Source: Lophium mytilinum (lineage: Eukaryota). Taken from it: a stretch of DNA of 64,000 bases. A program made the translations under genes and the position numbers. Position 1 is the stretch's first letter, and each line of letters starts with the position of its first letter. Under the pieces are notes generated by a model. It was not told where the DNA came from. It made no database searches and worked only from the letters and a program-made list of their open reading frames with translations. Where the stretch lies: assembly GCA_010093605.1 (NCBI GenBank), contig MU004189.1, positions 441,834-505,833 of the forward strand, in the 5' to 3' direction. Positions 21,801 to 52,773 of this stretch are shown here, one piece after another.

Positions 21801-21917
21801 AGAGTCTGTAAATTTGGGATTAGCCCTACTTGGACCTCCAGCCATCAAGGGCTTTGAACGGCGTTGGATACAAATCTGGATCCTTGCTGCGGAAGCGTCT
21901 GCAGCCAGTGTGAAAAG

Positions 21918-23870
21918 ATGCCGCCAATACGCCCCCACCTCTCCATCACGCTGCCGCGCAGCTTCCAATTTCACTACACTGACGGCCAACCACCAAAGAC
22001 CCCAGAGCCCGAGGAGCGCGCAGAAAACACACAACCTCTAGAGCCTCCAGAGCCTCCTCGACAGACCTACCGTGTGCGCCGCCGACGTCGCACTGTTCTT
22101 CCGCCGTATGCCAGCCAACCCGACTATCAGCAAGAACTCTCTGAGAACCCCATACCCACGATTGAAGGCCCTGTTTGCACTAGCGATGACTTCTTAGGTC
22201 TCCCGGTACCATCGCCCGAGCCGGATGACGGATTCCTTGCTCCTGCGTCCTTTGCACGTTTAATGTCCCCACCAAAGACACCAGTGGGACAGCTACTGGG
22301 AGAATCGCGTAGTAGGCTGCATGATTGGGATCACATCGATAGTTTCAGCCGCGGTGACAGTATTAGCAGACCGTCATCTTCATGCTCTGGATTTTCGGAC
22401 TCTTCCGTCTCTTCACGCAATAGCCTTGAGTCTTTCCCGTCGTTTGGAGGCAGCTGTACCAGCCCTGAAAGCGATGCCCCGGATCCTTTCACTTATGAGC
22501 CTTCAAGCATGAAATACGACCGTCAATCATCGCCGCTGGACTCATACCAGCAACACACTGGCCAGCATATCCCGCACCGGAAGCCTGTCTGGACAGAAGA
22601 GTTAGACAACCACCTCTGGATGTCGTACATGCGCTATCTGCAAGACCCAACGGTAACGCCATTCAAAATGCTTCCAGGAACAGCACCGCCGCAGGGAGTC
22701 TGCCATCGAGTTGTACGAAACGCTAAGCAGACTTGGAAGGGTTCTCGAGTCCATCCAGCATCTAGCAGTCGATTCGTACCGCCTATAGGGGGCTCAGATT
22801 CTCCTGATACCATCAAGGCTCCCAAGAGCGGAAGTAACACACCGACCGGAATGAATGTTCCCAAAACCTATCCGAAATGGCCTAAATCAGATGCTCAGAG
22901 TCGAAAACGACTTCGCGCACTGTGCAAGCGGAAGCCGTCGCTATCGGCTCATTATCAACGGCTGCTGCATTGCAGATCTCCGTCGCCCTTCCCGTCTTCA
23001 CCACGTTCTAGCGTGGAGCCGGCTGGTGGCTTATCATCTCCTTTCAGCGAGCACATGGCTAGTTTCTCGACTCGTGACATGAACATCTCCCTTTCGACTA
23101 GTACGGCATCAACGATGCAGTACGGTGGTCCTCTTTCGCAGCTCACCAACGACACCACCCCACGACAGGAAGATTGGTTCAACCAACCCCCCGGACGTTC
23201 TTCCGCTCATCAGAAGAGCCAGTCCCTGCATCTCGGCCTCGGACTGAGTAACAATATGATGGGCTCGTCTTTCTCGTCAATGTCTCAGATCACCCGTGCG
23301 CCTGTCGCATCGTCCACGTTCGAGCCAGTGTCAGCGATGCCGCCGCCGTCGCTTCTACAGGCACCTCGATTGGCACCTCCAGTCGAGCTTCACGCACCTA
23401 ACCCGCTTCCACGATCATTCAAGCGCCGAGCCTTTCATCAACCCTCGGAGGAAGGAAGATATAGAAGGGATTCCAGAGTCCACGAAGCTCTTATTCAGGA
23501 TCTCTTCGGTGCTCCCGCCGACAGCAGCCATCGCCGCGTCCGTAGCCGTGGCTTCAGTCTAGGTGACATGGGTCAAGGTGCTCGACGCCTGTCCTCGATA
23601 TTCACGCCTCCTTCAGAGTTGCATCAAATGACTACCCAAGCGATGGTCGAGCCAGTTCTCACTCCCGAGTCGGTGATTCCACATCCGACAATTCGACTGG
23701 GCTCTCCTTTTGGGGGACGTTCGAGCAATGTACATTTCAACAACACATTTCCTCGTAACTTCACGCCACACGGATTCGAACCTGTCACCTCCTTTGAAGA
23801 CCGTCTCGGTGAAACATCGGGTGGCTCTTTGTACTCGAACTCGAAAGACGAGATGCAGACTCAGAATTAG
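21918..23870 (+). CDS. Ser/Pro-rich, largely disordered fungal protein (~650 aa) with one ordered-looking block (WTEELDNHLWMSYMRYLQDPTVTPFK...WPKSDAQSRKRLRALCK); function unknown
   Basis: Intronless 1.95-kb ORF starting MPPIRPHL, preceded by a long pyrimidine/GC-rich upstream region. Confidence 0.85.
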   Translation: MPPIRPHLSITLPRSFQFHYTDGQPPKTPEPEERAENTQPLEPPEPPRQTYRVRRRRRTVLPPYASQPDYQQELSENPIPTIEGPVCTSDDFLGLPVPSPEPDDGFLAPASFARLMSPPKTPVGQLLGESRSRLHDWDHIDSFSRGDSISRPSSSCSGFSDSSVSSRNSLESFPSFGGSCTSPESDAPDPFTYEPSSMKYDRQSSPLDSYQQHTGQHIPHRKPVWTEELDNHLWMSYMRYLQDPTVTPFKMLPGTAPPQGVCHRVVRNAKQTWKGSRVHPASSSRFVPPIGGSDSPDTIKAPKSGSNTPTGMNVPKTYPKWPKSDAQSRKRLRALCKRKPSLSAHYQRLLHCRSPSPFPSSPRSSVEPAGGLSSPFSEHMASFSTRDMNISLSTSTASTMQYGGPLSQLTNDTTPRQEDWFNQPPGRSSAHQKSQSLHLGLGLSNNMMGSSFSSMSQITRAPVASSTFEPVSAMPPPSLLQAPRLAPPVELHAPNPLPRSFKRRAFHQPSEEGRYRRDSRVHEALIQDLFGAPADSSHRRVRSRGFSLGDMGQGARRLSSIFTPPSELHQMTTQAMVEPVLTPESVIPHPTIRLGSPFGGRSSNVHFNNTFPRNFTPHGFEPVTSFEDRLGETSGGSLYSNSKDEMQTQN

Positions 23871-24696: not shown

Positions 24697-25439
24697 GGGC
24701 ACGAGTATTTCCACACCCTCCTATTGTATATTAACACCCCCCAACTTTGGTAGATGCACACCCCTATCATCTAATCTTTCAATTGGCTAGAACGGCTCGG
24801 ACTTTCATTCGGAGCTCCAGTGGCCGGCCGCCTGGCTTAAAGGAGGGCATCATAGAACAGCAGCAGCACCACGGAAGGCAGTATAGCGGCCTGAGAGCGC
24901 CCATCCTAAGCCTCAGCCTTAGCCTTAGCTTGCTCCTTAGCCTTAGCCTTAGCTTGCTCCTCAGCCTTAGGCGGCGCCAGCGCGGCTTCCTTATAAGGAG
25001 CTCCAACGTCAGATAGCATTGTGCGAGGAGGATAGCCAGTGGGGTGCGGCGGCGATGTAGGGGGGGCCAGGTTTAATGCAGAGAGGCCGTAATAAGGTAA
25101 GGATCTAACTGTTTTAGCATGCTTATAGGTACGTAGGCACGTAGGTAGTAATACAACAGCCTATATACACTGTAGGAAACGGGAAGTATGCATAGTAAAA
25201 CGGGTATACTGCACAGCCTTACCATAACTACAGCCTTACGTACAGCCTTATGTACGGATTATATATATAGCCTCATCTACAGCCTTAATAGGCTGCTGGA
25301 AACGGTAAGAATGCGCGATGAAATGGCAGTGATCCGAGCCCTCCGGACCAATCAGAAGATCAGACGGGAGGAGGGTGTACATCTACCAATATTGGGGGGT
25401 GTTAATATACGATAGGAGGGTGTAGAAATACTCGTGCCC
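24697..25439. mobile_element. Non-autonomous TIR DNA transposon (MITE-like, 743 bp); superfamily Mutator or hAT unresolved
   Basis: 67-bp terminal inverted repeats at 24697-24763 and 25373-25439 (62/67 identical, starting GGGCACGAGTATTT). Perfect 8-bp direct repeat TTCTAATA at 24689-24696 and 25440-25447. No intact transposase ORF. Confidence 0.93.
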
Positions 25440-25892
25440 TTCTAATAACTGATTGATATGCAGGCGATCGACCTCTCAATTTTTGCAGACTAATGACAAG
25501 ACGCTGGAGGACCTCTAACGGAGGTGAGCATACACGTGTTAATCATACAGACATAAGGTAAATTATTGTTATTTATGGTATGCTTGTTGTCTTGGCAGTC
25601 TCTCACCTCTGGGCCTCAACTGTTTTGCGTTGGTGCTACGTTCCTAGAACAGATCAAGGCAAGTGACTGCTTCTTATCGAAATTTCGCTGCTTAGCTCAT
25701 CTGTGGTGTCCATGAAGGTGAATTCATCGCAGTTCTCTTGGCATCAATATATAAGTACCTAGTGAAGCTGGCTGCTCTGCTTTCTCAAATCACAATCTTT
25801 CCTTACACCACCGCACTCACCACACTAAAACACCCCATCGGTAGCACTCAATCTACTCCTCCGTGGTTTCTGCTACGACACCGAGCGTCGGC

Positions 25893-26745
25893 ATGTCTGA
25901 GTAAGTCACTATCCTCACTTCATTGCACTAAGTCTAATTGCACTCCCAGCCTTACAGATCCCGCCGTCCCGCCTACGGACGGTACCTGCCACTTCCTTCG
26001 TCTCCCCCAGGAACTTCGCGATGAAGTGTACGGCTATGCTATCACGAGTTCGGAGGACTATGTCGTCTGCGATAAAATCGCAAAGAAGCAGATCCTACGA
26101 TTTCCCGGGGCCAAACCCACTACCAATGCCACAGAGTCGACAATCGTAGTCAACCAGCTTCAATATGTCTCAAAGCAACTTCGCTCCGAAACCCTTGGCT
26201 TTTCGTTCAAGTTGAACAAGAAAGTTGTGATTGTGTCTGAGGATCATAAACGCAAGGGCCCTACTCAAGAAGACCTCGTAGACCTCGAAGACCTCGAAGA
26301 CCATCAGACTGGCGTGCTGCAGCACTCTCTCGACTTTCTCCTCGCGTGCACCCCGACTTCGCTCTCCAAACTCACTACTGTCGTCATCCAGATGGAAGGC
26401 GTAAGTCGTGCTCCTCATGGCGGAATCCTGACTTGGCCTCTGATCAACGGGCCACTCAACGCCTTCTGCATCGCCAATCGACACATTTCCGTCAAGATTG
26501 AATTGTTGGACTGGAAATCGAACTGGGATGCTCAATTCTATGTGCAGGGACGAACCTTGACATTCTTCGCCGATACAGCTCGCGCTAGCATTCCAGATGT
26601 CGCGTCCAATCTGCGATTTGTGCCTGCTGGAAGCTTAGATATCGAAAAGTTGGAAGAAGTCCGTGCTAGGGCGGCCCCGATACAACCTCCGCACTGGCAG
26701 GTGTCACTATCAAATAAGATGGAGAAATGGTTCGAGGGGATCTAG
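25893..26745 (+). CDS. F-box-like array paralogue 1
   Basis: ATG TCT GA|intron 25901-25949|C gives MSDLTDPAVPPTDGTCHFLRLPQELRDEVY...NQLQYVSKQLRSET...SNLRFVPAG...KWFEGI*. TATA-like TATATAA at ~25748. Confidence 0.88.
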
Positions 26746-27257
26746 TGGATGGAAGTGGCTGCATTCGGAGCTAGCCCATGGTTAGTTGTTCAGGGGATGA
26801 CTAAATAAGCTTAGCGGGTCGAGCAAGGGCAAGTCTAGTCGAGTTCTCTTAGAAGAGTTCGTGCACTGATCGAACTTCACTTCGAAGTGTGTGTGCTTTC
26901 TTTCAATCATCGTGTATACCTCCATACATTTTCAAGGCCCTGAACAAGGTGAAAAGTCATGGTTTTGACCCATTGGTACACCTACTGGCGAGATCAAGTC
27001 AGTGGGCCCTTAATTAGATTTATGAGCTTAAGAGGGTGATTCCTATAGTGCTATACTGCCAATGTCTTCGCGAGTCGAGCGGGAGAGGGTTTGACAGATC
27101 TGAGGGTAAGTGAATGTTTCTACTAACCACGTGTTTGCTCTTGATAGACTCCGCTGCCACATATAAAAAACGCTTCCTCGATGTGAGGAACTTCACAACA
27201 TCACCCGCTTCCAGTCTTCCACACCCACCAATTGACGGTCTAGTGCCAACCAATGTT

Positions 27258-28326
27258 ATGGCGCCGACACCTGACTTGCCTGAGTATGTCCCTTTCCCCT
27301 TCGTGGCTTAATTATGCCAACTCTGACTCCTTCATAGCTGTGCAGTCACTAAGAAGGCAGAAATTGCCAAGGGCCGAAATTCGATGTGCCTCCATCAGTA
27401 TGTGCCCTTTCCGAAAGCTGCATCAAGTCTCGCCTAAACATTTTCTTCGTGTCTAACTAGATAAAAGCGACTCCAGTAATCCAATCATCCCACCGGCAGG
27501 GACATGCCCCTTCCTGCGCATTCCCCAAGAACTGCGAGATCTGGTTTATGACCACGCCCTCACGAACCCCAGCGACCATTTGATCTGCACTACATACGTT
27601 ATCCCCACACACGAGGCGTCCCGAATAATCACGCGTCTCCATCACTCCATCTTCGATATCGAGGACATCAATCAGCTCCAATACGTTTCAAGACAGCTGC
27701 ACGCTGAAACCTCGGGTCTGGTTTCCAGGCTTATCAGATGCATTGAGTTCAGGCCAGAGATGTACGGGGTCGACCCCACCTTGGGACTGAAATCACTGGT
27801 CAGATTCGTTGATTCGGCAGAGGTCGCATACGCGCGAGCCCTCATCTTCCTTCGAGCCTGCAAGCACTCTACTATCGCCAACCTCAATACCGTTTTGTTT
27901 CCGCTCGGGGGTAGGTGGTATGTCAATGTCACGCAAACTCGTCAGGACTCCCCGCTTCACGGTTTATGCTCTGCCTATCCGCACATATCCTTCAAGCTTC
28001 AGTTCGAGCATTGGTGGTTTCAACATGCGGAGGGAACATTGTCCTTCCTGAGATCAGGAGTCCGGCTCGAGGGCGGCCACTACGGATATGCACTCACCTT
28101 CTCGTCCAACTTGTCGTTGATGCCTAACCTATCCTATTGCGATGAGAGCGTTCTCTGGGAGGGCATCGTGGAGCTAGGGCTTGAGGAAGACTTGAGCCAG
28201 GCGACGTTCCGTCATGCAAAGAGATGGCTTACGGAGGGTATCAAAGGAGGAAGGCAACGGCTGACGGAGATTTTACGGATTTCCTCTTCCGCTGCAAGTG
28301 GTGGTCTCTTGCTAGAACTTGCGTAG
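27258..28326 (+). CDS. F-box-like array paralogue 2 (two 5' introns)
   Basis: Introns 27284-27337 and 27398-27467 give ...NPIIPPAGTCPFLRIPQELRDLVY...NQLQYVSRQLHAET...SNLSLMP...KRWLTEGI. TATAAA at ~27162. Confidence 0.82.
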
Positions 28327-29309
28327 GGCTGCAAATACTGGGGCAGCGTACAAATCTCGAGGCGGCTGAACCTCAGCCGGCTATTGGAGACTCTTGGTGG
28401 ATCGGCTGCATTGCAGAACACCCGCTCTCCTCACTGGTTTCGAGCCGCCAAGAAAGTATCCATCTAGTGCTACATTCAGGCATCCGAACTTGTGGCTAGT
28501 ACAATGACGAGCGGAGAAATATCTGATAAGAGCCCTAGGATAGCTAGGTGTGGTTTAGGTAATGAGCTTCCATATTCTCTTACGATTTCCATCTTCCCTA
28601 AACACTTGCCCGGAGACTTCTCAAGTAGGCTTCCCATCTCGGGACAAGCCGATCAGTACTAACGACCTGGCTACAACTTGCAAGTTGCGGTGTGCGTTGT
28701 CTTATCACACGATAACTACTTACACCTTTGTAATGCTGTTCGTCGTGCTACAATGTGCTTTTGTCATTTCATAGCGACTGTGTACACCTCCTTGCGATTG
28801 TCTAAGGTGCCCTAGCGAGCTTCCTGATTGTTCAAGACAAACAATTTCATATCGTCCGCATCTTCGGAAATAGCTTGAAGGACCACAAGCAGCGGCAACA
28901 CACAGCAGCTAAGGGCAATCCAGCACGTGAGTGTCCTCTGAGCGGTCACATAAAACTAATTGCGTCCATGCAATAACTGCAGCTCAGCTCGACCTCAAAG
29001 TTCGGCAGTCAGTGTTAAGATATCAGTCATAATCGATGTCACGGACATGCTTTCGGGTTTATGTAAGATCATTGCCCCGAGCCATTTGTACGATTGCGGG
29101 TCACGCAACTTGCGTAGCTTTTTTCGCACTCCACGCGATTTCCTTTGCCTTCAGTTGTGAGGGATTTGGACAGTTGCCCAGCTTCACTTCACCTTCGCCT
29201 CACCTTCACTTTATGGATTCTATCTCTCTTATAATGTCCTTTTCCTTACTTCCAACGCTCTTCTTTACAACAACCCAGACCTGGGTCTCGGAACCAGGTT
29301 GTGCCCATC

Positions 29310-30143
29310 ATGGCATCGTACGTCTCCATCCAGATCCATATATTGCTCCTTAGTTTGGCTAATTCATAAAGCAGCGTCACCGACCCCTCGATTCCTTCAA
29401 GTGACGGCACCTGTCACTACCTCGGCCTGTCTCAAGAACTCCGATATGAGATATATCGATATGTCCTCACCGGTGATGAGGAGTTCATCACCTATGAAAT
29501 GCTCAAGGAAATCAACCAACTCCAATACGTTTCCAAGCAACTTCGGGCAGAGACCGTTGGCCTGACTCTCAAGTTCAACAAGTGTGTCAAGTTTTGGTCA
29601 GCCCACGACATCATCAAATGGAATCGCACCAGCAATCATAGCTGTTTGGTGGGCGTTACACAGGCGGTCAACTTCCTATGGGCGTGCTCTCCAGCCTCCG
29701 CGAGAAAGTTGGCTACCGTGCTGATCGAGGTGCCTTCTCCAAGAACCCACTCAGTCTACAAACTTCCCCTCGCCGACATTTCTGGGCCACTATCGAGCAT
29801 CTGCCGTTCCCGCACCCACAATCATACCTTGGTAAAGATTCGTATCGCCAGCTGGGATTTCAAGGATGTCGCCAAGATTCGAACGTTCATTCGCACTGGG
29901 AAGTTTTTGGAGGGCAAATGGGTTGCCAAATCGCCAGGAGTGTCATCCAACGTGCGGTTTGTACCATTGGGAAGCTCTTTCGATGAGACACTGTTCTCTG
30001 AAGGTATCTCAGCACAGCTAGGGCTCGCATCTAATACCGCCATCGCAACAACGTTGGGCAGGGCAAAAAAGTGGTATGCCGAGGGAATTTCGGGAGGTGA
30101 CAGGTTTCCAAAGTGCCCCTTCGTATTGTCTATGGTGGTCTAG
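29310..30143 (+). CDS. F-box-like array paralogue 3
   Basis: ATG GCA TC|intron 29318-29374|C gives MASVTDPSIPSSDGTCHYLGLSQELRYEIY...NQLQYVSKQLRAETVGLTLKFNK...SNVRFVPLG...KKWYAEGI. Confidence 0.88.
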
Positions 30144-30586
30144 CAAGCTTTCTGGTTGTTCAAAAAGATGAATTCTTATCTCGTTTATCTCCTCAAAAGC
30201 AGCTTGAGGCACCACTCGAAGCGGTAAAGGGAGATACGCAAACCTACGATCTCCTCCTTGCGAGGCAGAGAAGCTGTTACTCGTCAGGTTACTTCACCTC
30301 GCTGTAGGAGCTTGGCATTGGTTAGTCCGCAAGTGGCTTGCATAAGGCCAACCGGGCCTATTGGACGGCTCTGCTGGGACCACTTCCGCAATATGTGATA
30401 TATGATATATCAACTCCGCCTCATTTTCACTATCCAATGATACATAGCAAATTTTTAGTGACACACGGCAAGTATCGTCTTGCGTTTAGGCAGCGCGCTC
30501 CCTTCACTATAAAGCGACCTTCCCTCGTTCAGATCCTTACTCCGTATGTCATCAGCTTCAAAGTCTTTTCCAGCCACAATCACAGC

Positions 30587-31417
30587 ATGGATCCATCCAG
30601 CCCTCCGAAAGACGGCACTTGCCACTTCTTCCGCCCTGCCCAAGAGATCCGGGACATGATATACGAATACGCCCTCACAAGTCCCGACGGCCGTATCATC
30701 TGCAACGAGTACATTGCCTTTGACGACGATGCCCATCAACCTTTCACGCGCCTCGAGTTCCCTCGGAGCAATTGTACAGAGGTTAATCAACTTCGACACG
30801 TCTGCAAGCGATTGTGCGAGGAGACTACTGGTCTTACCCTGAAATTCAACAAACACGTCGAATTCTTTGACAAAACCTTCTTGGTTTCCGAGTATCAGGA
30901 ACCCGAATCCTACTTCAGCGACTGCTCGAATTCAGCCGTTGATAAATGCATCACCTTCTTGAGCGCCTGTACGCCCAAGTCTCGGGCGAAGCTCCATTCT
31001 ATTGTCATCGAGATCCCACACGCTGATGACGCTCCGTATGCCGAAATTGCCACCACACTCAACGACCTCTGCTTCATGGTTCTGCATCTCTCGATCAAGG
31101 TGATCATCGGCGACTGGTATTTCGACCAGGCTAGCGAGGTTCACGACTTTCTGAGGATTGGCTACCTCCTAGAGTCGAAACGACAGGCATACGAGCTTGG
31201 TTCAGCTCCCAATCTAAAGCTTGTCCCGTGCGAGGAGGTTTTCGATGAGGCTATGTTCACGCAAGGCCTCGCAAGGCGCTGGCGTCCCTTCAATGTCAAG
31301 CAATCATTCCCACGAGACACAATTAGGTGGTTGGCGGAGGGTATCGTGGTGCGCGAGGAGAGCTTGGTGGATCCTTTCTTCATCAGGATCGAGCTGCCAA
31401 TTCTACAGCGTCGTTGA
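30587..31417 (+). CDS. F-box-like array paralogue 4 (no coding micro-exon)
   Basis: MDPSSPPKDGTCHFFRPAQEIRDMIYEYALT...NQLRHVCKRLCEETTGLTLKFNK...PNLKLVP...RWLAEGI. TATAAA at ~30508. Confidence 0.86.
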   Translation: MDPSSPPKDGTCHFFRPAQEIRDMIYEYALTSPDGRIICNEYIAFDDDAHQPFTRLEFPRSNCTEVNQLRHVCKRLCEETTGLTLKFNKHVEFFDKTFLVSEYQEPESYFSDCSNSAVDKCITFLSACTPKSRAKLHSIVIEIPHADDAPYAEIATTLNDLCFMVLHLSIKVIIGDWYFDQASEVHDFLRIGYLLESKRQAYELGSAPNLKLVPCEEVFDEAMFTQGLARRWRPFNVKQSFPRDTIRWLAEGIVVREESLVDPFFIRIELPILQRR

Positions 31418-31576
31418 ACGATGAACGAGGCTATGGCTTGCCACTGTCAAGGGTGCCTCGGCATACTCCGAGAAGTCAGAACCTCATTACTTTGTATAAT
31501 CGGCGAAGTCATTAGGCCACCTCAGACAGCGGTAGGCGGGGGATCAAAAACTATATCTGACGATACGCTGCTACAG

Positions 31577-31650
31577 ATTCAAATGAGTGACTTGAGGAAA
31601 CTTGATGTACATTCAAATGAGTGACTTGAGGAAACTTGATGTACATTCAA
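31577..31650. repeat. Perfect 34-bp tandem duplication
   Basis: ATTCAAATGAGTGACTTGAGGAAACTTGATGTAC occurs at 31577-31610 and 31611-31644, followed by ATTCAA. Confidence 0.95.
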
Positions 31651-31955
31651 GTGCGACTGTCTGGGGTCCCCCTGGGTTTTAGGAAACTATGACGTGATGT
31701 TATATTGGAGGCAGTGGGTTCCCAGCTAATGTATGAAAGCCATTCTATATCAACTTTGAAACCAACCGGGAGAAAGAGCATGGAACCGGATTGGAATCTA
31801 TTGATGGGGCTAACTTGGTAAGTCTTATATATCTCGACCTTGAAATCATCCCAGAGGCACCATACCCCGAGTATGAGCCCCTATTGCTGCCTAAGACCTG
31901 TAGAGAAGCCTTCTGGTACCTCCCGCAACCCAAGTGCTGGCCGATGGTAGACATT

Positions 31956-32774
31956 TCACAAAATCGAGGGCAGCTGCTCCAAACCCGGACACCAAGCCAT
32001 TTCCACTTCGGACATTCCCTCGGAGAACCACGTTCTCACCCGAGGCAGCCACCTCTCAATTCCAGCAGTATCAAAGATACCTAGATAGTCCCGCTCGGCC
32101 AATAATCGTTGAGCAAGTACACCTTCATCGAACTTTCCGGTGGGTAGCACCCGCAAGTTGGGAAAGCGTAACCGAAAACAATGGTGCTTAGCGTATTTGC
32201 CCTCTAATATGAACCGAGTGACACTCTTGCCATACGTCAATTTCCAGGCTTCCGACCGGAGCTTGACCATAACGTGTATGTGGGTGGAGCACCACCTACG
32301 AAGTGGACCGGTGATAGAGTCCCACTGCGTGCACTTATTTGATATTTGGCTGTATCCTGATTGAAGGTCAATCTGGATGGTGGCGAGTTTCGAGGTAGAG
32401 ACTGTCGTGCAAGTAGTCAGGAAGCTGAGACGCTGATCCAGATACACGTCGATGTCGCATGGTTTCATCCTCAGGATGTCCTTGTCGCATGTAATGTGAA
32501 CCTGTTTGTTCAGTTTGAGGGTCAACCCGAGGGTTTCGGCGCGTAATTGCTTGGAGACGTATTGCAGCTGGTTGAACCCATCGAGTTGGTCGTCGTAGAG
32601 GAAGTCTTCGTCGCTGGTGAGAGCATATTCATAGACTTCGTCGCGGAGTTCCCGCGGAAGACCCAGCAAATAACAGCTCCCATCAACTGGGGGTATGGAA
32701 GGGTCGGTGCTGTTAGAGGAGTTAGTCAGATGAGGTAGTATTACGTTTCTCTAAAGGACGACTTACGAAGACAT
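31956..32774 (-). CDS. F-box-like array paralogue 5 (inverted)
   Basis: ATG TCT TC|intron 32766-32710|C gives MSSTDPSIPPVDGSCYLLGLPRELRDEVYEYALT...NQLQYVSKQLRAETLGLTLKLNK...PNLRVLPTG...TWFSEGM. Confidence 0.88.
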
Positions 32775-33061
32775 GGAGATTTTGGGGCAGTGAGTGTGTG
32801 TGTGTATGTCGGTGTGGTTTGATGCAACCACAGGCTGGCAAGTAGATACGAGGGCCTTTATAGTATGGAAACAAGGTAAAGATTTCTTAGGGAACTATTT
32901 TGGCTCAATTCACCGGCATTGCCGCTCATTTCCACTACTCCAAGTTGGTCCGTAGGAACCACCTCACTTCCACAACAGAACCTGCTATCCACTGGGACTC
33001 TCTCTACACAACACGCATTTCACCAGAACACACAACACTTTGGAATCTTCAATCACTTGCC

Positions 33062-33922
33062 ATGTCTTCGTAAGGCCCCTTATATCCGCAAAATCCCAGC
33101 TCATCCATCTAACCGTGAGGATACAGCATCATCAATCCCTACAACCCGGCGGACGGCGTATGCCATTTCCTTCGCCTTCCCCGAGAGCTCCGAGACATGG
33201 TCTACGAATTTGCGATCACCAGCGAATCGGAGTCTGTCACATTCGTGGACGGTAAGATCGGATACATCGACCTATACAGTCAAACCCGAAGCGTCAACGA
33301 GCTACAATACGTCTCTAAGCAACTGCGTGCTGAGACTATTGGTCTCACTCTGAAGTTCAACAAGTGCGTCCGCTTCAACGAGAACGATTCCTTCAAAGAG
33401 CTCGATATCGAGCAAGCGGTCGAAACATCAAAGAGTGTGACCGAATGCCTCAAGTTCCTCAAGGCGTGCACACCGACCTCGATCTCGAAGCTCGCAACAA
33501 TCTTGATCGAGATGCCTGAACCCCACATTAGTGCAGTTCTAACCTACTTGCGCTCGTGGAGAAATATAGTTAGCGAGCTTTCCAAGTTCTGTATCGCGAA
33601 CCCGCACGCCTTGGTCAAGATCTCTGTCACCAAGTGGTACCTCGACGAAAGCGCAACACACGGTCCCTTAGATACATCTTGGTTCTACGAGACTAATTAT
33701 AAGGTCAAACGCACTGCTGCTTGGGGAAGGCTCGGATCTGCGTCCAACTTGCGAGTGTTCCCTTTTGGTAGCCTGCCCGATCAAGGCTTGCTGTCTCATA
33801 GTGTGCCTCTGACTAGTGTGCCTCTAAGGTGGCTTGCCGAGATAAAGAAGGTGTATGCAGACGGGATCTCAAGTGGAGATTTTGATCCAGCAGGCTGGAT
33901 AGCTCTGGCGGACGATCAGTAG
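33062..33922 (+). CDS. F-box-like array paralogue 6
   Basis: ATG TCT TC|intron 33070-33126|C gives MSSIINPYNPADGVCHFLRLPRELRDMVY...NELQYVSKQLRAETIGLTLKFNK...SNLRVFPFG...KVYADGI. Confidence 0.88.
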
Positions 33923-34282
33923 TCCAAAGAGGTGCCTGGGGGGTGATGGTACAGCAGACGGAGCGGTATTGGATCTTTCTTTTTATATCGGATGGTTCTG
34001 GGAGAGCTTCAGCGAGTAGTTGCATATAAGCTGAAGTCTAAATATTAGACCCCCTACCTGAATTCGCCTTCTCTTACCAGTGTAATCAGCCTACTGTCGT
34101 GTCCCTCTGAGCCTCGTCATGTGACCCATACCATAACAGTTTCCCAAAGATTCACCACGACGGACCTTGCGACACTATTTCGGATTATCAAAACCCCCCT
34201 CCTAACTCCTAACTTCCAGCTCTAACAACTCTCTACGTACACGCATACACTCAACCACCCCACCCAAACCCAACAGCAACCA

Positions 34283-34918
34283 ATGCCTCCATTAGGTACT
34301 CCAATAACCACCATGGACCAGGATGATTCGTAAGAACCCATTTCAACCTGCTTTGCTCTTCGTCTAACAACTTTTGATAGTGTTGCCAATCCCTCAATCC
34401 CGCCGGCGGATGGGACATGCGTCTTCCTACGTCTGCCCCAGGAGCTCCGCGACATGGTGTATAAATACGCCATCACCTCTCCGACCGGCCGTGTGCTTTG
34501 CTGCCAGTACGCCAACAAGCAAGTCCTCAAGATATCACAACCAGACGACCTGGCCCGGCCTATAGTCAAAGCGAACCAGCTGCAATATGTTTCCAAGCAA
34601 TTGCGCGCAGAAACGGTCGGTCTGACGTTGAAGTTCAACACGGAGGTTCTGTTCAAGGGAAATAGGACGACGAACAGTGATAGATACGAGCACTTCGACG
34701 AGCAGCTTCGTACCTTCCACTGTGGGTTCGGTCAAAGGTTCGACCGCGCAAACAGGCAGTGTCTTCGCTTCCTCGGAGACTGCAGCGAAGCTAGCCTGCA
34801 AAAGCTGAGGACTATCGTCCTCGACTTCGCCGGAGATGCCCTCCCATACGAAGATCCTGTTTCCCGCTTCTGTTCCGATTATCCACACATCTCTGTTAAG
34901 ATCCGTGTGATTGAATAG
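34283..34918 (+). pseudogene. F-box-like array paralogue 7, truncated by a nonsense codon
   Basis: Intron 34330-34380 gives NPSIPPADGTCVFLRLPQELRDMVY...NQLQYVSKQLRAETVGLTLKFN...HISVKIRVIE then TAG exactly where all siblings have Trp. A second TAG follows two codons later, and the C-terminal motifs are not recoverable in frame. Confidence 0.8.
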
Positions 34919-35668
34919 GATTAGACAGGTGGCCAGATCGCTGGGATCACGTTCCCTAATTCACAGAGAGAAGCGAATGAGGCGAGGCAAGTCTATCCAG
35001 GAGGGTGTTCGGGCGGCAGAGTGGGTGGACGGCCGATGGAATTGGCCGGGAAAGTATCCTTAGAACGAGGGCTGAGGAGCTGGCAGGTGTTGATATTAGC
35101 ATTCTGGGAATATTCCAAGGCTAAGATTTCGAGGGATGAGTATCAAGTAATGTAAACAAAAAGTCCTACTCGAATCTGGGGAACTAATATGTGCTTGGCT
35201 AAAGCCTGCGTAAAATCGCCTACGTAATATCGCCTGCCACAGCTTGAACTGGCTCAAAGCATTCTTAGGGCATCATGAAGGAGACTCTTGACAATCCTGA
35301 TATCTGGCCGGGCGGCCCTTGTGGTGGGGAGGATAATCGTAAATATATTGAGCGTGTATCCTGGCTGTCTAGAGCTTAAGCTCATAGCAAGGCGCGGTAG
35401 AATGTATAGGATTTGATCGATTACCTTCTCCTTTGAGAGTATGCGAGCCTGAGGTCTTGATTGCATCAGCACGATCCCTTCACCAAATCATTCACCGCAA
35501 GGTGAACTTACCTGCTCCTAGACACTCACAGCTTCACCTAGCCCGTCATCATAAACAACTCCTTCCTCTTCCAACACTTTCTCCTACACTCCAGCCTCCC
35601 CATTACTCCACTCTCAGACCACAAAACCACCCGCGCACCTCGATCCTAGTAGTACCACTCTACACACC

Positions 35669-36726
35669 ATGCCTTCGTAAGTTTTCCCTTGATTCGCATC
35701 CGCTCAAAGCGCACCATCTGACCAACCCCTCACAGCACTTCTAACCTCGCCCACGATCCCTCTATTCCACAGGTAGGCGTATGCCATTTCCTGCGCCTAC
35801 CACAAGAACTCCGCGACATCATCTACGAATACGCCATCACCGAGCCCAACAACCGCGTCATATGCTGCCAACAAGGGAACCGCCAAGTGCTCGCAATCTC
35901 TTCACCAAGCCCCATCGCCGCCAACCCGAGCCTAAGCGAAGCAAATCAGCTTCAATTCGTCTCCAAGCAACTCCGCGCCGAGACTCTCGACCTAACGCTC
36001 AAGTTCAACCCGACGGTGGCCTTCCTAGGCATTGTGGAAGAGCGTGGCGACTCTTCCGCATACGGCCAATGCAACCACTTCCTGATGAACTGCAACAACT
36101 TCCTGATGAACTGCGCTCGTGCCATTCTAGCCAAACTGTCTTGTATCGAACTCGAGCTCAGCGGAAATATCTCATACCTCCCAATTGGGTCCATCCAGTC
36201 TTTGGCTAGCAAACTCTATCACATGAATCCTCAAGCTTCCATGGTCGTCCGCCTGGTCCATTGGAATATCATGAGCGACGAGTTCATCTGGTATTTTAGC
36301 GAGTACGGCGAGTATCTCATATACGCGTGTCAGTTTGTTCGATTTGAGAATGTGCCGAATCTGAGGTTCAGGCCGGCCGGGGATCTGGATAGGAAGCGGC
36401 TGAGGCGGAAATTGCTCAGGGAGATGCGGGACTATTTCCCAAGTGGGGAGAGAGAGAAGATGCTGGAGGAGGCAAAGCGGTGGTATAAAGACGGGCTTCC
36501 GAGAACTTCCAAAGCTGGAGAAGGTGTCGGTGGTCAGGATGACGTCGAGGACGATGAGGACGAACACCCTGAGGATGACGAGGACGAGTTTGTCTTTGAT
36601 GAGGGAGATCTCCAATGTCTCTTCGATTACGAGGAGGAATCAGAGTATCCTTCTGATACCGAGGTTCTTGAAGACGGCGAAGGTGGCGAGGATGAAGAGG
36701 AGCTTGATGGAGAAACAGACGACTAA
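35669..36726 (+). CDS. F-box-like array paralogue 8 with acidic C-terminal extension
   Basis: ATG CCT TC|intron 35677-35735|C gives MPSTSNLAHDPSIPQVGVCHFLRLPQELRDIIY...NQLQFVSKQLRAETLDLTLKFN...PNLRFRPAG...KRWYKDGL plus a ~60-aa D/E-rich tail. Confidence 0.88.
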
Positions 36727-37136
36727 GTGGCGGTTCCTCACGTCCTAGGGCAATCTGTAGCGGCAACACCAGAGCCTCTTGAGGAAATTGCGTTGTTTCT
36801 GCGGAAAGCTCTACGTGCACTAATTCCCGATCTACTTAAGAGAATAGGAATAAATCTGAGAAATCGACAGTTTCTGGCCCAAAGCTTGGGCATCCGACGC
36901 TGATAAAACATGTGGTTTGAAGTGGGTGAGATCATCGTGAAAAAATGTTGATGGTGCGATGAGTTAAGGCTCGGAATACGGTCAGTTGTTAGTGCTCCGA
37001 ACGGATCAAATCCTCTAGACCGATACTTGGAACGGTCATCATTCAGAGAAATTCAATGCATTTTGAATTACCTACCAATTTGCACCGACTGTGCGGCGTG
37101 AAAGTACTATACATATGCTTGGCCTACCTAGCTCTT

Positions 37137-38394
37137 CTACCAGGTCGTAGGAACTTTCGGATATTCCGATTTGCTCATCTTCAGATCGTCGAACACCGAG
37201 TCATCGCCTGCAGTAAGTCAGTACCATGTTGAGACGACGCCAGCGATATCACACGTACCATGCAAATGCTGAACCCTCAGCTCGTCCTCATGCTCCAGCT
37301 TCTCCATCTCCTCAAGTGGGGTCTCCTTATCGTCGTTTTTCTGATCTTTGGACGTCGGCTCAACCGCTGTTCCGAGGTCATTGTTGTTCCCTTCGCCTAT
37401 GAGAAGGATTTGAGCATTGGGATAGTCGAGGTAGTTCGGCTTCACCTCTGCCCATGCTAGGCCTCGGAATTCTTCTATTATCCTAGTGCGACGTTAGTGA
37501 TGCGCTTCAGTGGAAGCGCGAAAATACGTACTCTTTCGGGAACTCCGGACCTTGTGGAAGACTTGCATTGGCAGGACCCTTTCGAGTGGGATTCTTGATA
37601 CTTATAGCAAAGCTGCCTTGCGACCGTAGTCCGAGTTCCTCCTGTACCTCTCCCGGCTCGGATGGAATTGTGAGCATGTATACCAAGTGAGTGGAGTTCT
37701 CCACCCGGGTGATAGCATAGACGCCCTCACCGACGGTGTTAATCGGATGGTTGTGACGCGTTCCGGCGGTTTGCGTCTCATACGTCGATCCCTGGAAAAA
37801 TTTCTCTTTCAGGTCTTTCATCGTGGTATTGGCCTTCTCGACAAACGCCATGAACTTGTCGTTGGGTGTTTTGGGGAAGACCTTCTTCGGAAGTGCAAAA
37901 AGGCGGTTGGTATTAGACTCGTCGATAGATCCTTCGCCCAGCTTGGCACCGACGGGAATAGGGCGCATGACGAAGTAGGTGCGCTGCAGGTCTGCAGCAC
38001 TCTCTGCGTCATCAATGCCTACGCGCTTCCGAGTAAAGAAGTAGATGATACCCTTTTCGAGGATGTTTGAAGGCATGGCTTTCGCACGCTCTGGGGACGT
38101 TTCGATAGCTTTGCCATTTGTCTCTGTCTCCATGGTGTCGTCCCCGCCCTCGGTAGAAGATTCCTCTTTCTCGTCTTCTGACTTTTGGTCCGATTCGTTT
38201 TCATTTTTCGGCACATCCTTGTCCTGTTCATCACCACTTTGCTCTTGTCCTAGCATAGTCTGCTCGATCGTCTTTTGCTTCTTTTGCGTATCTTCCTTTC
38301 CCTGCTTAGCCTGAGGTGAGCTATTGGTATCTGCTTTGCGCTTCATTCCCGCAGCCGTCTCCTTGGTCTGGGATCTGAGGTTTGTTCCGGCCAT
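37137..38394 (-). CDS. Conserved fungal protein of unknown function (LEKGIIYFF...GEGVYAI...HLVYMLTIP...SIKNP family), 2 introns
   Basis: Charged low-complexity N-terminus followed by a globular block. Last exon reads GDDSVFDDLKMSKSEYPKVPTTW*. Splice sites are canonical. Confidence 0.82.
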
Positions 38395-39019
38395 GGTGTC
38401 TAGGATTGGGTTGTCAGCTACGCGAACGCAAGCGAAATATGAGAAATAGGCTAGAAGCCAGTGGAAGTCGCTATATGAAAGATGAATAGGCATATGGGCA
38501 GCATATGAACAACTATACCCTTTTGACTTAGGGTATACTGTAATGGAACGATAGGGTACAAGCAATAGTAGCAAATGAGTTGCTCACCTGATTTTGGATG
38601 GACTGCAATTGATTGATTCACTTGGTTTTTACTTGGTAACGGGAATGAGAGATACTGTAGACGCGTTGTTGAGGTCGCGGTCGACTGAGGACGTATGTAG
38701 TCCTTTACCCCATTCGCGTGGTGATGACGTATTCGTGACATTTTGTCAAATGTGCACTAGGAACGTGTCTTTCACGCGACATAACTAAGAATGTAATACT
38801 TCCTCCGCATGATGCAGACTAAAGGTAATGCAGACCCTTGTCTTGTACGCCGACGAAATCTAAGGATGGTCAAAGTGGTACTTCTTGTATGTACAAGGTT
38901 TCCGGAAATACCCAACAACCTTTATAAATACAGATTTCAAGGAAGTAATTTTGATAGTGCCATGTCTGCTATCCTGCTCTTTATGCACATTTGTTGGCCT
39001 TACTACGCGTTAGATCCCA

Positions 39020-47401: not shown

Positions 47402-50400
47402 CTACAGCTCGGTTTTAGGGCCCAGGAGCCGCTGCCGCTTTGCATCCCGAGTATTTTCAATATGCGCCTCGATGGTGCCTTGCTTCCGGTAGATAATTGA
47501 AGGCAGATTCGGTGTCTGGTGGTCGTAAACACTGTATGTGCTCTGCGCAGATTTGTTCCATATTACGCGAACCCACTTGTCGTTCTCCGTGCTTGGCAGC
47601 AAGGAGACGTGAGTTTCCTCGCCCTGGCGTAGTCGAGGCAAATGAGCCAGCAGGTGCGAGCTGGTCATGACGGCACTGCTACCTATAATCTGTTGAGTCG
47701 TTGTTTGAGTGTTAACTAGTGTCGATTTGGAACCAGTGGTTTGGATTTGTCTTTCTTCGGAATCTGCATCGGAACCCCATCGAGTGCCAGGACTCCAGTC
47801 CGCTATTTTAGAGAGGTAGTTCAATGGTAGACGCGCGGTTTGGTGTGGGCTTATTATATCAATCAAAGAGTCGGAGTCCCATTGATTGGCAGCCCAGTAT
47901 AAGGACAGGCAAGCTGACACATGCGAGATTTTCCAACGTAGGAAAATCAACGCGTGCTCAAGGTACGGATCTTTGGTTTTGGTGCTTGAATTTGAAGATG
48001 GATCCGGACTCTGGTCGTCCATGTTTGGTTCGACCCAATTGCAATACAGTTTAGTTCCACCCTGGGTGAAACACAAGGAGGTAGCAGACCGCTTGAGTAT
48101 AGCGACCCTGCTTTTAGGTCCTGCAAGGAAAGTTAGTCGATTTCAACGTTCTAGCAAAAGTCCCAATACCAAGCTTACCGGCGTCTGTGTACAACCAAGC
48201 TACTACCGTATTCCACATGCTGTAGACTAATAAAGGCAGTTGAGGATGGAAAACAAATTGATTTCCTGAAGCCTCTTCCCGCCATGAAAGTCTACTGGTT
48301 TTAATCTCTCCCCTGCAGTGGTAAGAGGGCCATTGACCTTCAACATGGACCTCGCTCCACACTTGAACCGTTCTGCAATCAATGGCACCTGATTGCATGC
48401 TCCCGGAAACCAGGCCCAGAGCTCTCCCATCTGGAGAGAAGACGGAGTAAGTTGACATATCTTGCTTCTTTTTAGTGCCCTGGTCGGAAGTTTCTTCTAT
48501 GTCAAGAGATTGGAGGCTGTATTGAATCCTCATTGTTCCAGGCACGCGGCGAATGATGATAACGGAGTGTAGAACGAGAAGTCGATCCAGATCGTGACTG
48601 ATGGCAACTGGAAACGCGAAACGGTGGGGAGTCTTCGAAGATATGCACTGCTGCAGCATCCCAAATACTTGGCGGTCTGGAAGATCTACGTCGATGTCCA
48701 TGAGCAGCGTTTCGTCCTTGGTATTCCTCCGTTGATACCGAACTTTCCATCCGGAGCTGCAGGTCTTGGCCAGACCGATTCTTTCATCATCAGAAACGAG
48801 TGAAGGATTTCGATTAGAGCTCCGGACAGCTGGTTGAACGAAGAAAAGGTCTACTGCGTCAATGTACTTTCTGAACGACCTTAGCACTATCCAGACTACA
48901 TACTAGCATCGAAACTTACTGTGAGGGCAAGACAAGAACTATTCCCAGTTCCTGACCGCAACTCGAAACTTGAGATTGAACTAAGATCGGTCGCTGAGGA
49001 CTGCATCTATGGTATGAGCCAATCGCTTCCGTTGGTAGCATCGACGACACCGTAGTATTCTTTGTCTCGTACCAGAACGAAGACTTAGAGAATGCGGTAA
49101 TGCTGGACCCCCAGATTGCTGATGGGTCTTGTGTCAACACGTGGCCCCATTCATCGTCAAGGCGCTCCAGGTCCATAGCAAGCTCCTCAAGCAAGGATAA
49201 AATCTGATTTCCAATCCCACTCGGCAAGATAGGTGCGAGATCTGAAGGTTTCTTCAGGCCAAGGTTGACCAATAGCTTCAAAGATGGGATCATTTGAAAT
49301 ATCCTTGATGCCTCAATCCAGACGGTCACGGTGAGGGGTCGCCTGACAAGTGTTGATATCAAACTAGAGAAGTCGTTCTCGGCGTTATCCTGAAGTGGCA
49401 TATCGTGAGACTGAAATCCAAGAGCTGCATGTTTTACCCATTGGAGTGCATACTCAATAAAAGGAAAGAGGGCTTTCAGAGCCGCAATAGTTGGAAGGGA
49501 ACTAGTCTGGCGAAGCGGACTCGACGGCAGGTCATAGAGAAGGTACGAAAGACAAATCGAGGAGCATCGGACATGGGCAGCGCGCTCATGGAGACTAAAC
49601 CCGCTACTGTGGGCGAGCCCAGAGGTGGCGGTCAAAAAGTCGCGGAAGGATGAGTGTATGAACCGCACAGTCTTGTCGGTCTGCACTTCTACTAAAGCTC
49701 TACAGATAATGGGGAGGGACTCTTCAAACTCAGCTATCAGATTTGAAGTCTCCGTGACTTTTCCGGGAGCGACCGCAATTGCAACCTGTAGTTCGGTGAG
49801 GAGAAGGGGGCGGGAAGCGATGGCGACGAGCTCGAAGATTTTCCGAACGCTTGCTCTTTCTTCCGCATAGCCTTTGTCGAGGACTCGAAGGATCTTGCCG
49901 TAGACATCATGCAGGCCTTCAACATCAGCGGCTTCGAATATGGCGGCGATACGTTCTTTTGGCGAAAGGGCTCTGCAATTGAGGTATTGGGCCATAAGCC
50001 ATGCCCATAGAAACATGCCTTCAGCTCGAAGAGCTAGCGCATCCACCGCTTTCCCGACTGAAGTTCCAATCGGGATCAGTCTGCGATCTTGTAAGCGGAG
50101 CATTTGTGGCTCGAGGTAAGTTTTGATGTCCTGGAGGTTCGAATATCGCTCAAGATACAGTGAAACGTGGAGGAATCGTATAGGTAAGTCCACGTTTGGC
50201 CGACCTAAGAGCAGAACACGCGTGGAAGTCGTCGCGCAAAGTCTTTGAATGAGATCGAGAAAGGTGCTATCTTGGTCGCATTCATCAAGTCCGTCGAAAA
50301 CAAGGGTGGTGTGCTTTAGAACTTCTAGCAGAAGGGATAGGGCGGCGAATATCTCTTCGTTGGACGCTTTCGGTTCACTACTATCGTTATCTTCCATGAG

Positions 50401-52773
50401 GACCGCACATCGATCAACTACATCCTTTTCTCCACGAAATCGGTGAAGGAGCTGATGGACAATAGCTCGAAAAGCGTTGTATGGTCCGCAGTAGTCCCGT
50501 CGCTCTGAAGCAAAGTGGTAATAGCAAATTGAGCCATAGCGCGGAGATACATGAGTAAAGGAGTTTGAGACCTCTTCGAGATCCTCGATGAGCAAAGACG
50601 ATAATACCGTCTTGCCGTACCCCGGCTTTCCTGGAGTCATTGTTAGGATTACGCGATGCGAGGCAAGGTCATCTTACCCTTGATGAAAAGGACAGGCGGA
50701 ACTTCCGAAGTGACTATATCTAAGCCTAGCCCATACTTTGTTGATGTTTCGGATTTCCAACTTTTATAAACAGGATCATTTAAGATGTAGTCTCCGGTAT
50801 CCGGCATCCGAATCATCTGGGCCTTTTCAAATTCTCGTTTGTACTCTGGGGGGTCGATCCAGCTCTTAATGTCACTCATCTTCGAACCTGCAGGAGTTAG
50901 AGACAACGAAGGGACGTTTATGACCACGCGTACTTATCGCTTCTACTTCAGTCTGCTCCATTTCTTCGCTGGTGGGATGCTTGGATATCTGTTGCCACCA
51001 GTTTTCTTCACTTGTGTCAAATTGAGCCGAAAGTCGGGACTCTAGCTGATCATTTGAAAGACGCAGATCCTCAACTTCCTGTCGGATTTGCTGAAAAGCC
51101 TGCCCCTCCAACAGCGGCTGTTGTAACCGCTTCTCATTTTTACTCTGGAATAGCGTCAACCCCTCCAGTAGAACCTCGGCCCTGAACGAGGCTTGATGAT
51201 ACTGCACCCGCTTCAGGAGAGCGGAGAACCTTGCGTCGAACGGCTGCCAGGATGAATTGGGAATGAAGCGAGACCTTGCATGAGTATCTGTTCAGAGTAA
51301 GCCACTTTTTCTTAAATGAACGAAGTGAAGCAATGACACAGTACCGCTATTTGTATCCAATATTCTGCAAGATTCAGAGAAGAATTGCATAATATCTGCG
51401 TACACGTATGAGAGCCCTTTGTAGACTCGGCGGTAGCGAACCTCGGTATGGAGGGCCAACTCAGTGTCCAATGTAGTCGCTCTTTTATTTGTAAAAGCGT
51501 TCAGGTACTCCTTATACGACGGCAAAGACTCTCGAATTCTCGAAATCATGCACACAATTTTGTCCAGATAGACTCTATGTTTCATTCCCAGCTTTAGAAC
51601 GTGAGATTTAGTATCGTTTGGTGATCTTGGGCTGGCAAGGATGCTTACTAGAAATACCAGACGAATAGCGCCCCAAGCCAGAGCCGTCCATTCAGGGCGA
51701 GTGGGTTCGAAAATCGTCACTATCTCAAAAAAAGGCTCCCAAGCAGCAGTAAATAGCTCAACCTTTCGCTGTAGACTGGAGAGCTTGCGGTGATTGGGGA
51801 CGACCGTGCATTTTGCTTGTAAGTCTCTTAACATCTCGAAAGAGGTATTGAACTCTTGAAACTGCTCCATTCCGTTTCTGTCCAGCGTATCACGAAATGT
51901 CGCAATGACTTGGTAGAAAATCTCGTCGGCTTCGTGCAGCCTAAAAACCGATGATTCGTTTCCAAAAGCTCCAGTATTCGCGAATGTCGTTTCAGTGTGG
52001 GCCTTGCTCTCTTCTCCGGAGCTGGGTTGTAGTGTAGGCCAACGTTCGGTCAGAGACGTTTGTATTTCTCTTCGAAGTCGATTGAACGCCTTTGTGCGTC
52101 CTTCACCGTAGATGAGGGGCATGTGAATGTCGAAAATGCCGAGTAAGGAGTATGCGGAGTCTTCTTCGCGTTTTGTCTCGCGTCTCGCTGCCCATGACAA
52201 ACGTTCGTCAATGCTAAATTGAGACAAAGGTCGTCCTTGGAGCGCTTCCGTACTGATCCCTGTGATCTCGTGGATTTCCTGCACCATCGAATCTTTAATG
52301 CCAATACTCGCCCCTTCAGCGGAAAAGAACTCCAGTTTTGCTGGAGCAACAAGTTCCTGCAATGTCCAGCCACGAGTAAACCACCTACTGTGCCGCCATG
52401 CTGATTTCCAATCGGCAGAGCCACTGTTCGAAACGTCGGATAAGAAGACGAAGCACTTTGCCGCATCGCGGTACCAACGAAACATAGAGTTAATAGACTC
52501 TGTGAGGTCGGAACTGCTTAATTTGTCGATACAGCAGGTGTCCACCCAGGAAAATGGGAGGCCGTTCTTCGCCGCCTCCGATGTACAGAATCTGATCTTT
52601 TCATACCCAGCTTTGGTTTTGCCTCGATCCGGACTCTCCGTCAAATCTTTCAGAGTGACTTCTTGGTCATCAGACCCCCAGGTGTGCGACAGGATCGCAT
52701 ACCGTGGAATATTGCTGCCGACGAACTCGACAAGGCTGAGTTCGCCGTCATCTCCGACCTTCAACAAACGCAT
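47402..52773 (-). CDS. Fungal NLR-like protein: HET domain + Goodbye-like helical domain + NACHT + non-repetitive C-terminus (~1680 aa, 6 introns)
   Basis: HET motifs YAILSHTWG, WVDTCCIDK, ESINSMFRWY, SRWFTRGWTLQELVAP and EDSAYSLLGIF. AWEPFFEIV..PEWTALAWGAIRLVF and WQPFDARF blocks. Walker A GKPGYGKT (spliced), Walker B LVFDGLDEC, and AEGMFLWAWL. Six GT-AG introns join all ORF pieces in frame. Confidence 0.9.

Follow-up and report, generated by a model that had tools for sequence, protein, structure and literature searches.

The 64,000-nucleotide stretch of the genome of Lophium mytilinum, a fungus that lives on wood, analyzed here (contig MU004189.1, hereafter the window) contains eight consecutive related genes between positions 25893 and 36726, which we designated c1 to c8. 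According to our results, these genes very probably constitute an old tandem array of eight paralogues, belonging to a family of small proteins (~250-330 amino acids) that extends across the Dothideomycetes. As a whole, the locus is best explained as an old array of genes for F-box-like proteins, putative adaptors of ubiquitin ligases of the Skp1-cullin-F-box (SCF) type, a reading to which we assign a probability of about 0.5; the SCF-adaptor mechanism, taken on its own, falls a little short of even odds. Each protein would start with a module of ~80 residues, formed by a Pro-rich lead (DPxIPPxDGxC), a helix (F/L)LxLPxELRxxIYxYA, a variable beta-hairpin and the helices NQLQYVSKQLRAET, and this module would be followed by a fungal-specific alpha/beta domain of ~180 residues. 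As the most likely mode of action, we infer that the N-terminal module docks on Skp1 of an SCF-type cullin ligase, that the proteins function in ubiquitin ligation, and that clients differ among the paralogues, each of which would select its own through the variable face of its alpha/beta domain.

The array was first seen as eight related frames at 25.9-36.7 kb by six-frame translation and motif scans, and a tblastn search with the eight proteins against the whole window recovered exactly eight paralogous loci, all within the interval given above, and no further fragments. Pairwise amino-acid identity among the copies is 26-46%, and their eight-way alignment retains 18 invariant columns, located within the blocks P..P..G.C, E.R...Y....T, N.L..V...L..ET, FL..C and L. 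These results sustain the original prediction, made from the letters and their translations, in which eight homologues shared the same ordered blocks, with little conservation between them and a better conserved N-terminal end. Indeed, over the 28 paralogue pairs, mean identity reaches 51% in the N-terminal core (from the conserved Cys to LKFN) compared with 25% in the remainder, and the three pairs of orthologues described below display the same pattern (71-81% in the core and 45-62% in the remainder). The faster change of the C-terminal part is compatible with an adaptor whose docking end is fixed, and equally with weaker constraint. As for the two C-terminal blocks that had been attributed to all seven untruncated copies, SNLR..P is present in the seven, whereas W..(E/D)G(I/L/M) is present in six, with VYADGI in the corresponding place of c6.

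In order to date the array, a maximum-likelihood tree of 24 proteins was built, including the eight copies, three proteins of Mytilinidion resinicola and 13 outgroups picked from the best matches. The eight Lophium and three Mytilinidion proteins form one clade (support 99/97), within which three one-to-one orthologue pairs were recognized, namely c8 with P0009 (62% identity, support 100/99), c6 with P0005 (54%, 99/98) and c7 with P0004 (56%, 99/97). Therefore, at least the lineages of c6, c7 and c8 predate the split between Lophium and Mytilinidion. The three Mytilinidion genes lie on one contig of 1,549,144 bases. The most diverged copy is c2, with the longest end branch of the tree (1.83). 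Further, saturation of synonymous sites was reached in each of the 28 paralogue pairs (proportion of synonymous differences, pS, 0.64-0.81), and thus the ratio of nonsynonymous to synonymous substitution rates (dN/dS) is unusable among the paralogues; the values obtained where dS could be computed (0.17-0.53) are not to be over-read. Similarity between copies at the DNA level is limited to 12 blocks of 31-227 bp, which correspond to motif-coding segments and never to introns or spacers. Taken together, saturation, motif-only DNA similarity and the presence of orthologues do not point to recent duplicates, gene conversion or fast turnover. As for the adjacent uroporphyrinogen-III synthase gene (HemD), its best non-self matches display 80% (an unnamed record), 71% (Lepidopterella) and 60-65% identity (Pleosporales), and a Mytilinidion HemD was not recognizable by name among these matches, so that no like-for-like rate calibration was obtained from this gene.

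These findings bear directly on the proposal put forward in the original prediction, in which F-box adaptors of the locus diversify rapidly by birth and death, with positive selection on the C-terminal domain, and serve as a repertoire for defence against foreign or selfish proteins, in the manner of nematode and plant F-box arrays. Several of its elements were found as described: the tandem layout includes one inversion (c5), one pseudogene (c7) and one added tail (c8), the N-terminal core changes more slowly than the C-terminal two thirds, and the N-terminal fold is predicted to be F-box-like. Likewise, no annotated Mytilinidion orthologue was found for c1-c5, whose best matches there reach 29-43%, a gap which may be due to loss, gain or missing annotation, and a HET/NACHT gene resembling NOD-like receptors (NLR-like) is located 12 kb downstream of the array. 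Nevertheless, for three of the eight copies a one-to-one orthologue exists in another genus, the saturation of every pair leaves no young duplicates, no gene-conversion tract is seen, and the similarity between copies does not exceed the motif-coding blocks; the events recorded in the array amount to the inversion, the decaying copy and the tail change. Moreover, faster change outside a docking motif is expected of any adaptor or loosely constrained protein, and nothing in these results ties the locus to viruses, transposons or toxins. Rapid birth-and-death diversification thus finds no backing here, and the locus is without the signature expected of a defence repertoire. We regard the defence proposal as improbable, and it retains what probability it has because c1-c5 and unsampled strains could still fit it.

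The old array that we favour belongs to a far larger group of proteins. A HMMER profile built from the eight copies was searched against 1.84 billion cluster representatives, yielding 1015 matches at E<=1e-3, 342 at E<=1e-10 and 7 at E<=1e-30; the last correspond to four of the window's own genes and the three Mytilinidion resinicola proteins. Many of the distant matches are near full-length and retain all the blocks, those of the C-terminal part (NLR..P and W..G(F/I)) among them. Named relatives were found in Mytilinidion and in the Pleosporales Trematosphaeria, Clohesyomyces, Lindgomyces, Pyrenophora, Melanomma and Bimuria, and the subfamily amounts to about a thousand clusters at 50% identity in filamentous ascomycetes. 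Word-indexed searches retrieved only 6 and 13 proteins, giving little information on taxonomic range. For subsequent analyses, an alignment of 145 members (A2) was assembled from the eight window copies and 137 of the 146 listed non-window matches; the 9 matches left out were shorter than 190 or longer than 400 amino acids, and the window's own records were entered as the window references.

When the 145 members were compared with Pfam at E<=1, matches were obtained to 2EXR (107 members), DUF7730 (102) and F-box-like_2 (19, best E 9.7e-5). In the window itself, 2EXR (PF20150) was matched at E<=0.01 by four of the eight copies (c7, 25.2 bits; c8, 24.6; c6, 20.4; c1, 18.4), the gathering score of 24.8 bits being exceeded by c7 alone, and c2-c5 gave no match. 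Matches to DUF7730 (PF24864) reached 12-16.5 bits (the best being c7, 16.5), below its 27-bit cut-off and confined to profile positions 5-36 of 235, and none of the eight matched F-box-like_2 (PF13013). Judged by these profile matches, the genes appear as a subfamily of a large, already catalogued and uncharacterized fungal superfamily that borders 2EXR, DUF7730 and F-box-like_2. The view that the family is unrecognized finds no backing, with around a thousand relatives on record; the locus is an ordinary expansion of a widespread, unstudied fungal family. No functional study of the 2EXR or DUF7730 families was found in the literature; an 'F-box domain' orthogroup is merely listed among contracted families in the relevant passage of PMC11412873. 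One relative from outside the window (P0031) displays a weak similarity to APOBEC_N (E 9e-4) and APOBEC1 (E 1e-3) at residues 114-203, behind its 2EXR/DUF7730 start, which may be due to chance.

The link of this family to F-boxes comes from structure prediction. With the 145-row alignment, the full AlphaFold (AF2) model of c6 was obtained with a predicted local distance difference test score (pLDDT) of 86.0 and a predicted template-modelling score (pTM) of 0.84. It comprises a short helix and a 12-residue helix over LPRELRDMVYEF, three short strands within the variable insert, three short helices over NELQYVSKQLRAETIGL after it, and alternating strands and helices past residue 80. Because searches with the whole model were dominated by the large domain and its generic beta/alpha matches, residues 1-79 were modelled alone (pLDDT 84.4, pTM 0.66). 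When this 79-residue model was compared by VIA with 48,161 representative chains, 26 matches at Z>=2 were obtained, and 14 of these were entries of Skp1/F-box complexes, namely 5ibk, FBXO42, AnkB, FBXL2, Cdc4, FBXL17, FBXO3, FBXL5, beta-TrCP1 (twice), FBH1, FBXO31, cyclin F and Skp2. In these superpositions, 40-52 residues were aligned with a root-mean-square deviation of 2.3-4.4; the aligned positions are spread over residues 9-79 of the model, which means that the hairpin is skipped. The weight of this result lies in the enrichment, as no fold class other than the F-box recurs among the 26 matches. Consequently, the modelling suggests that the N-terminal module is probably an F-box-like three-helix fold with a beta-hairpin inserted between helices 1 and 2.

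Several observations weigh against the adaptor reading and have to be set beside this enrichment. None of the eight copies matched the canonical F-box families PF00646 or PF12937 at E<=10, a search in which the HMMER filters drop most matches above E ~0.1, and neither appears in the list of the 25 families that the 145 aligned members matched most frequently. A profile of the 145 sequences reached no F-box protein among the PDB sequences at E<=10, and gave a single chance-level match (E 0.4). Foldseek comparison of the 79-residue model with the PDB retrieved no F-box (best E 0.98), and that of the full model gave nothing at E<=1e-3, with a best E of 2.9e-3 and TIM-barrel-like rows of template-modelling score ~0.3. 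The VIA scores of the 14 F-box matches are just Z 2.0-3.2, a range for which the tool warns of a merely common arrangement, low absolute values being as expected for ~45 aligned residues. In the canonical consensus, helix 1 starts with LPxE(I/L) and helix 3 usually carries a Trp; we counted the LPxE(I/L) start as present in the array, where all eight copies keep the E and R of ELR, but LP itself is found in five of the eight, being replaced by IP in c2, LS in c3 and PA in c4. Furthermore, the hairpin insert falls inside the would-be F-box, a Leu occupies the position of the helix 3 Trp, both structures are predictions, and Skp1 docking stays putative. The F-box assignment in the original prediction is hence probably borne out at the level of predicted fold, and finds no backing as regards canonical membership; its LPxE start holds in full for the five copies with LP.

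The same body of evidence has to be read against the main rival explanation, according to which the N-terminal module is of the 2EXR/DUF7730 type and only resembles an F-box, does not dock on Skp1, and the proteins would, for example, bind another partner or act as regulators through the alpha/beta domain. We consider this possible, if doubtful. It agrees with the best Pfam matches of the copies, which are to 2EXR and DUF7730 rather than to an F-box, with the failure of sequence profiles and Foldseek to reach F-box proteins, and with the variable-length hairpin that interrupts the helices. 2EXR is a Pfam family built from an automatic cluster, and in the passage that describes it (PMC9621593) its two ExR motifs are said only to be ones that 'might be functionally important'; in the array, the first of them corresponds to an invariant E(L/I)R (8/8), and the second helix reads (K/R)(Q/R)L(R/H/C)xE, which is not literally ExR. 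Against it stand the recurrence of F-boxes, and of no other fold class, among the VIA matches of the isolated module, and the 19 of 145 relatives that touch F-box-like_2. In addition, the public record identical to c5 (P0001, Lophium mytilinum BU16DRAFT_561481) is named 'F-box domain-containing protein' in UniRef, an automatic label.

Regarding the part of the protein that would contact clients in an F-box-like adaptor, residues 80-264 of c6 are predicted to form a series of ~40-residue units, each combining strand and helix. Helices and strands modelled with confidence carry the conserved blocks FL..C...KL..I.I, FC...P...VK, NLR..P and W..EGI, and the segments of low confidence correspond to the stretches rich in indels that separate these blocks. 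A wide VIA search with the full c6 model reached a best Z of 5.4 (1kko_A), with two chains at Z>=5, all of them generic beta/alpha structures, and no leucine-rich repeat (LRR), WD40 or kelch domain was listed among its matches. Since only generic matches were obtained, the C-terminal fold is left unassigned and the binding role of the alpha/beta domain is a guess, which also counts against the adaptor proposal. In the ESM Atlas, residues 80-264 retrieved solely uncharacterized Ascomycota clusters with scores of 0.82-0.89, below 0.9 and hence taken as leads only, and some of these clusters carry 2EXR, DUF7730 or F-box-like_2.

Gene models were built from reading frames, donor and acceptor sites and conserved N-termini, and are presented in the following table.

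Table. Positions (in the window), strand and main features of the eight paralogous genes.
Copy	Positions	Strand	Product (amino acids)	Remarks
c1	25893-25900, 25950-26745	+	267	intact
c2	27258-27283, 27338-27397, 27468-28326	+	314	two introns, from RNA contigs
c3	29310-29317, 29375-30143	+	258	
c4	30587-31417	+	276	single exon; starts directly with MDPSS
c5	32774-32767, 32709-31956	-	253	inverted
c6	33062-33069, 33127-33922	+	267	copy used for structure modelling
c7	34313-34329, 34381-34918 (open part); C-terminal remnants to 35060	+	184	broken
c8	35669-35676, 35736-36726	+	332	acidic, D/E-rich tail of ~80 residues

Thus, seven copies are oriented on the plus strand and c5 alone on the minus strand. 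Seven of the eight copies share a phase-2 intron of ~50-60 bases after a first exon of 8, 17 or 26 bases, c4 being the sole copy that has no 5' intron. This intron is backed by RNA in c1 and c2, by identical public models in c5 and c8, and by an equal N-terminus in c3. As judged by eye only, no signal-peptide-like start is visible. In addition to c5, the products of c4 and c8 are identical to database proteins (P0007 and P0008, respectively), and the public model of c3 (P0002, 206 amino acids) agrees at the N-terminus and differs at its 3' end. The record of c6 is limited to P0003, a 241-residue open reading frame (ORF) product that is short at the N-terminus. For c1, c2 and c7, no protein record turned up in either of the two large protein searches, and c1 and c2 look unannotated in public gene sets, though spliced RNA exists for both.

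Compared with its orthologue P0004, c7 has two in-frame stops after VKIRVIE and has lost ~50 codons, including the NLR..P block, and a frameshift is found further on, before the last 25 residues; c7 is a decaying pseudogene. The ends of these proteins vary: the tail of c8 (36480-36726) is absent from its orthologue P0009, which ends instead in ~45 unrelated residues, and a further kind of tail, seen in P0004, has left remnants after c7, at 34986-35060, where they are out of frame.

Transcription was assessed with one public run (X1, whose kind was guessed), a small one in which 36% of the sampled words of the region were present; its contigs were mapped to positions 25000-38999. These contigs carry canonical GT..AG or CT..AC joints and therefore derive from spliced RNA. 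The contig over c1 (25957-26759) agrees with the window at every letter, and a loose contig end at 25900 runs into the first letters of exon 2, which indicates that the c1 intron is spliced. For c2, two GT..AG joints were found (27283>27338 and 27397>27468), defining introns at 27284-27337 and 27398-27467, which corrects the original prediction for this gene. Accordingly, c1 and c2 are transcribed and correctly spliced. Contigs were also found over the c7 region and over parts of c4, where cover was scarce (mean word depth 0.44-0.71 over 30137-31070). In this small run, c3, c5 and c6 had zero cover and no joint was listed for the introns of c7 and c8, none of which is evidence on the expression of c3-c8.

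Two further contigs concern c7 and c8. The first, of 930 letters (34819-35804), extends from the c7 remnant through the spacer into the 5' end of c8, whose intron is unspliced in it; it contains one joint (35455>35512), corresponding to an intron at 35456-35511 with CT..AC ends, which is of the minus-strand type. It may represent a transcript from between c7 and c8 that is antisense or non-coding, and the spacer, in which no gene had been recognized, is thus not transcriptionally empty. The second contig, of 3,893 letters (35783-38999), comes from the adjoining minus-strand gene, carries minus-type introns at 37207-37257, 37482-37530 and 38400-38587, and crosses the whole coding exon of c8 unbroken; it could reflect read-through in antisense, or convergent overlapping transcripts that an unstranded assembly has joined.

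Gene structure and transcription also allow us to weigh whether the array is evolutionary debris, that is, a set of lineage-specific genes under weak constraint, several of them heading to loss, with little or no function. The broken c7, the three copies (c1, c2 and c7) that have no protein record in the collections searched, the low identities and the long end branches would be in line with this view. Nonetheless, seven of the eight reading frames (253-332 codons) are open despite saturated synonymous change, splice sites are intact in all seven intron-bearing copies, c1 and c2 produce correctly spliced RNA, the 18 columns are invariant across the eight copies, and orthologues are kept in a second genus. 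Decay without function is, in consequence, the least probable of the explanations considered, and a very unlikely one.

Regarding the surroundings of the array, the flanking genes are ordinary, and encode a GH16 protein, HemD and a GH15 protein; the array is bordered by the ORF at 21858-23870 and by the minus-strand gene that starts at about 37140. The NLR-like gene, or gene pair, occupies positions 48916-52836 on the minus strand, with a HET domain (E 1e-11) in the ORF at 51292-52836, and an NPHP3_N/NACHT-type NTPase (E 7e-21) and a winged-helix domain in the ORF at 48916-50670. On the same strand, positions 4541-11437 correspond to a single open frame of 2,298 codons that has no Pfam match at E<=0.001; its product abounds in E, L, A, S and D, contains long stretches that look like coiled coils, and ends in an acidic C-terminus.

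The family to which these genes belong is large and fungus-specific, and already has Pfam entries; the useful result is therefore the fold-level link of its N-terminal module to the F-box, which was obtained from the model of the isolated domain after sequence profiles and Foldseek had failed. This link turns a label of 'unknown function' into a question that is cheap to address at the bench, namely whether these proteins bind Skp1. The locus is of value as material for trying the adaptor idea, since its eight diverged paralogues are well defined and three have orthologues. In a broader and decidedly speculative view, to which we give little credence, proteins of the 2EXR/DUF7730 type would represent a large fungal-specific class of SCF adaptors, with a hairpin-split F-box and an undescribed alpha/beta client-binding fold; each paralogue would watch a different endogenous or foreign protein, and together they would provide a surveillance layer parallel to the HET/NLR repertoires.

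Several known systems can be set beside the Lophium proteins. With 2EXR they share the N-terminal 65-80 residues, which match profile positions 3-77 of 94, and both are fungal and uncharacterized; moreover, UniRef names P0009, the orthologue of c8, '2EXR domain-containing protein'. In contrast, the 2EXR profile covers the N-terminal module only, so that the C-terminal blocks FL..C, FC...P, NLR..P and W..EGI lie outside it. The likeness to DUF7730 consists of a weak match of the N-terminal LPxELRxxIY region, while the remainder of that profile was not recognized in the eight copies. With the F-boxes of SCF adaptors, the copies share a first helix of LPxE(L/I) type, a last helix of V(S/C)KxL(R) type and a predicted three-helix arrangement that superposes in 14 of the 26 VIA rows; they differ in matching neither canonical Pfam family, in the hairpin insert, in the Leu found in place of Trp, and in a C-terminal domain that is not LRR, WD40 or kelch. 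Finally, expanded and positively selected F-box arrays are described in Caenorhabditis (e.g. PMC8120010). These and the Lophium array are both tandem clusters of F-box type, in which the docking end is conserved and the other end is more variable, whereas the Lophium array is small, with eight copies, and its members are ancient, as indicated by their saturated sites and by orthologues across genera.

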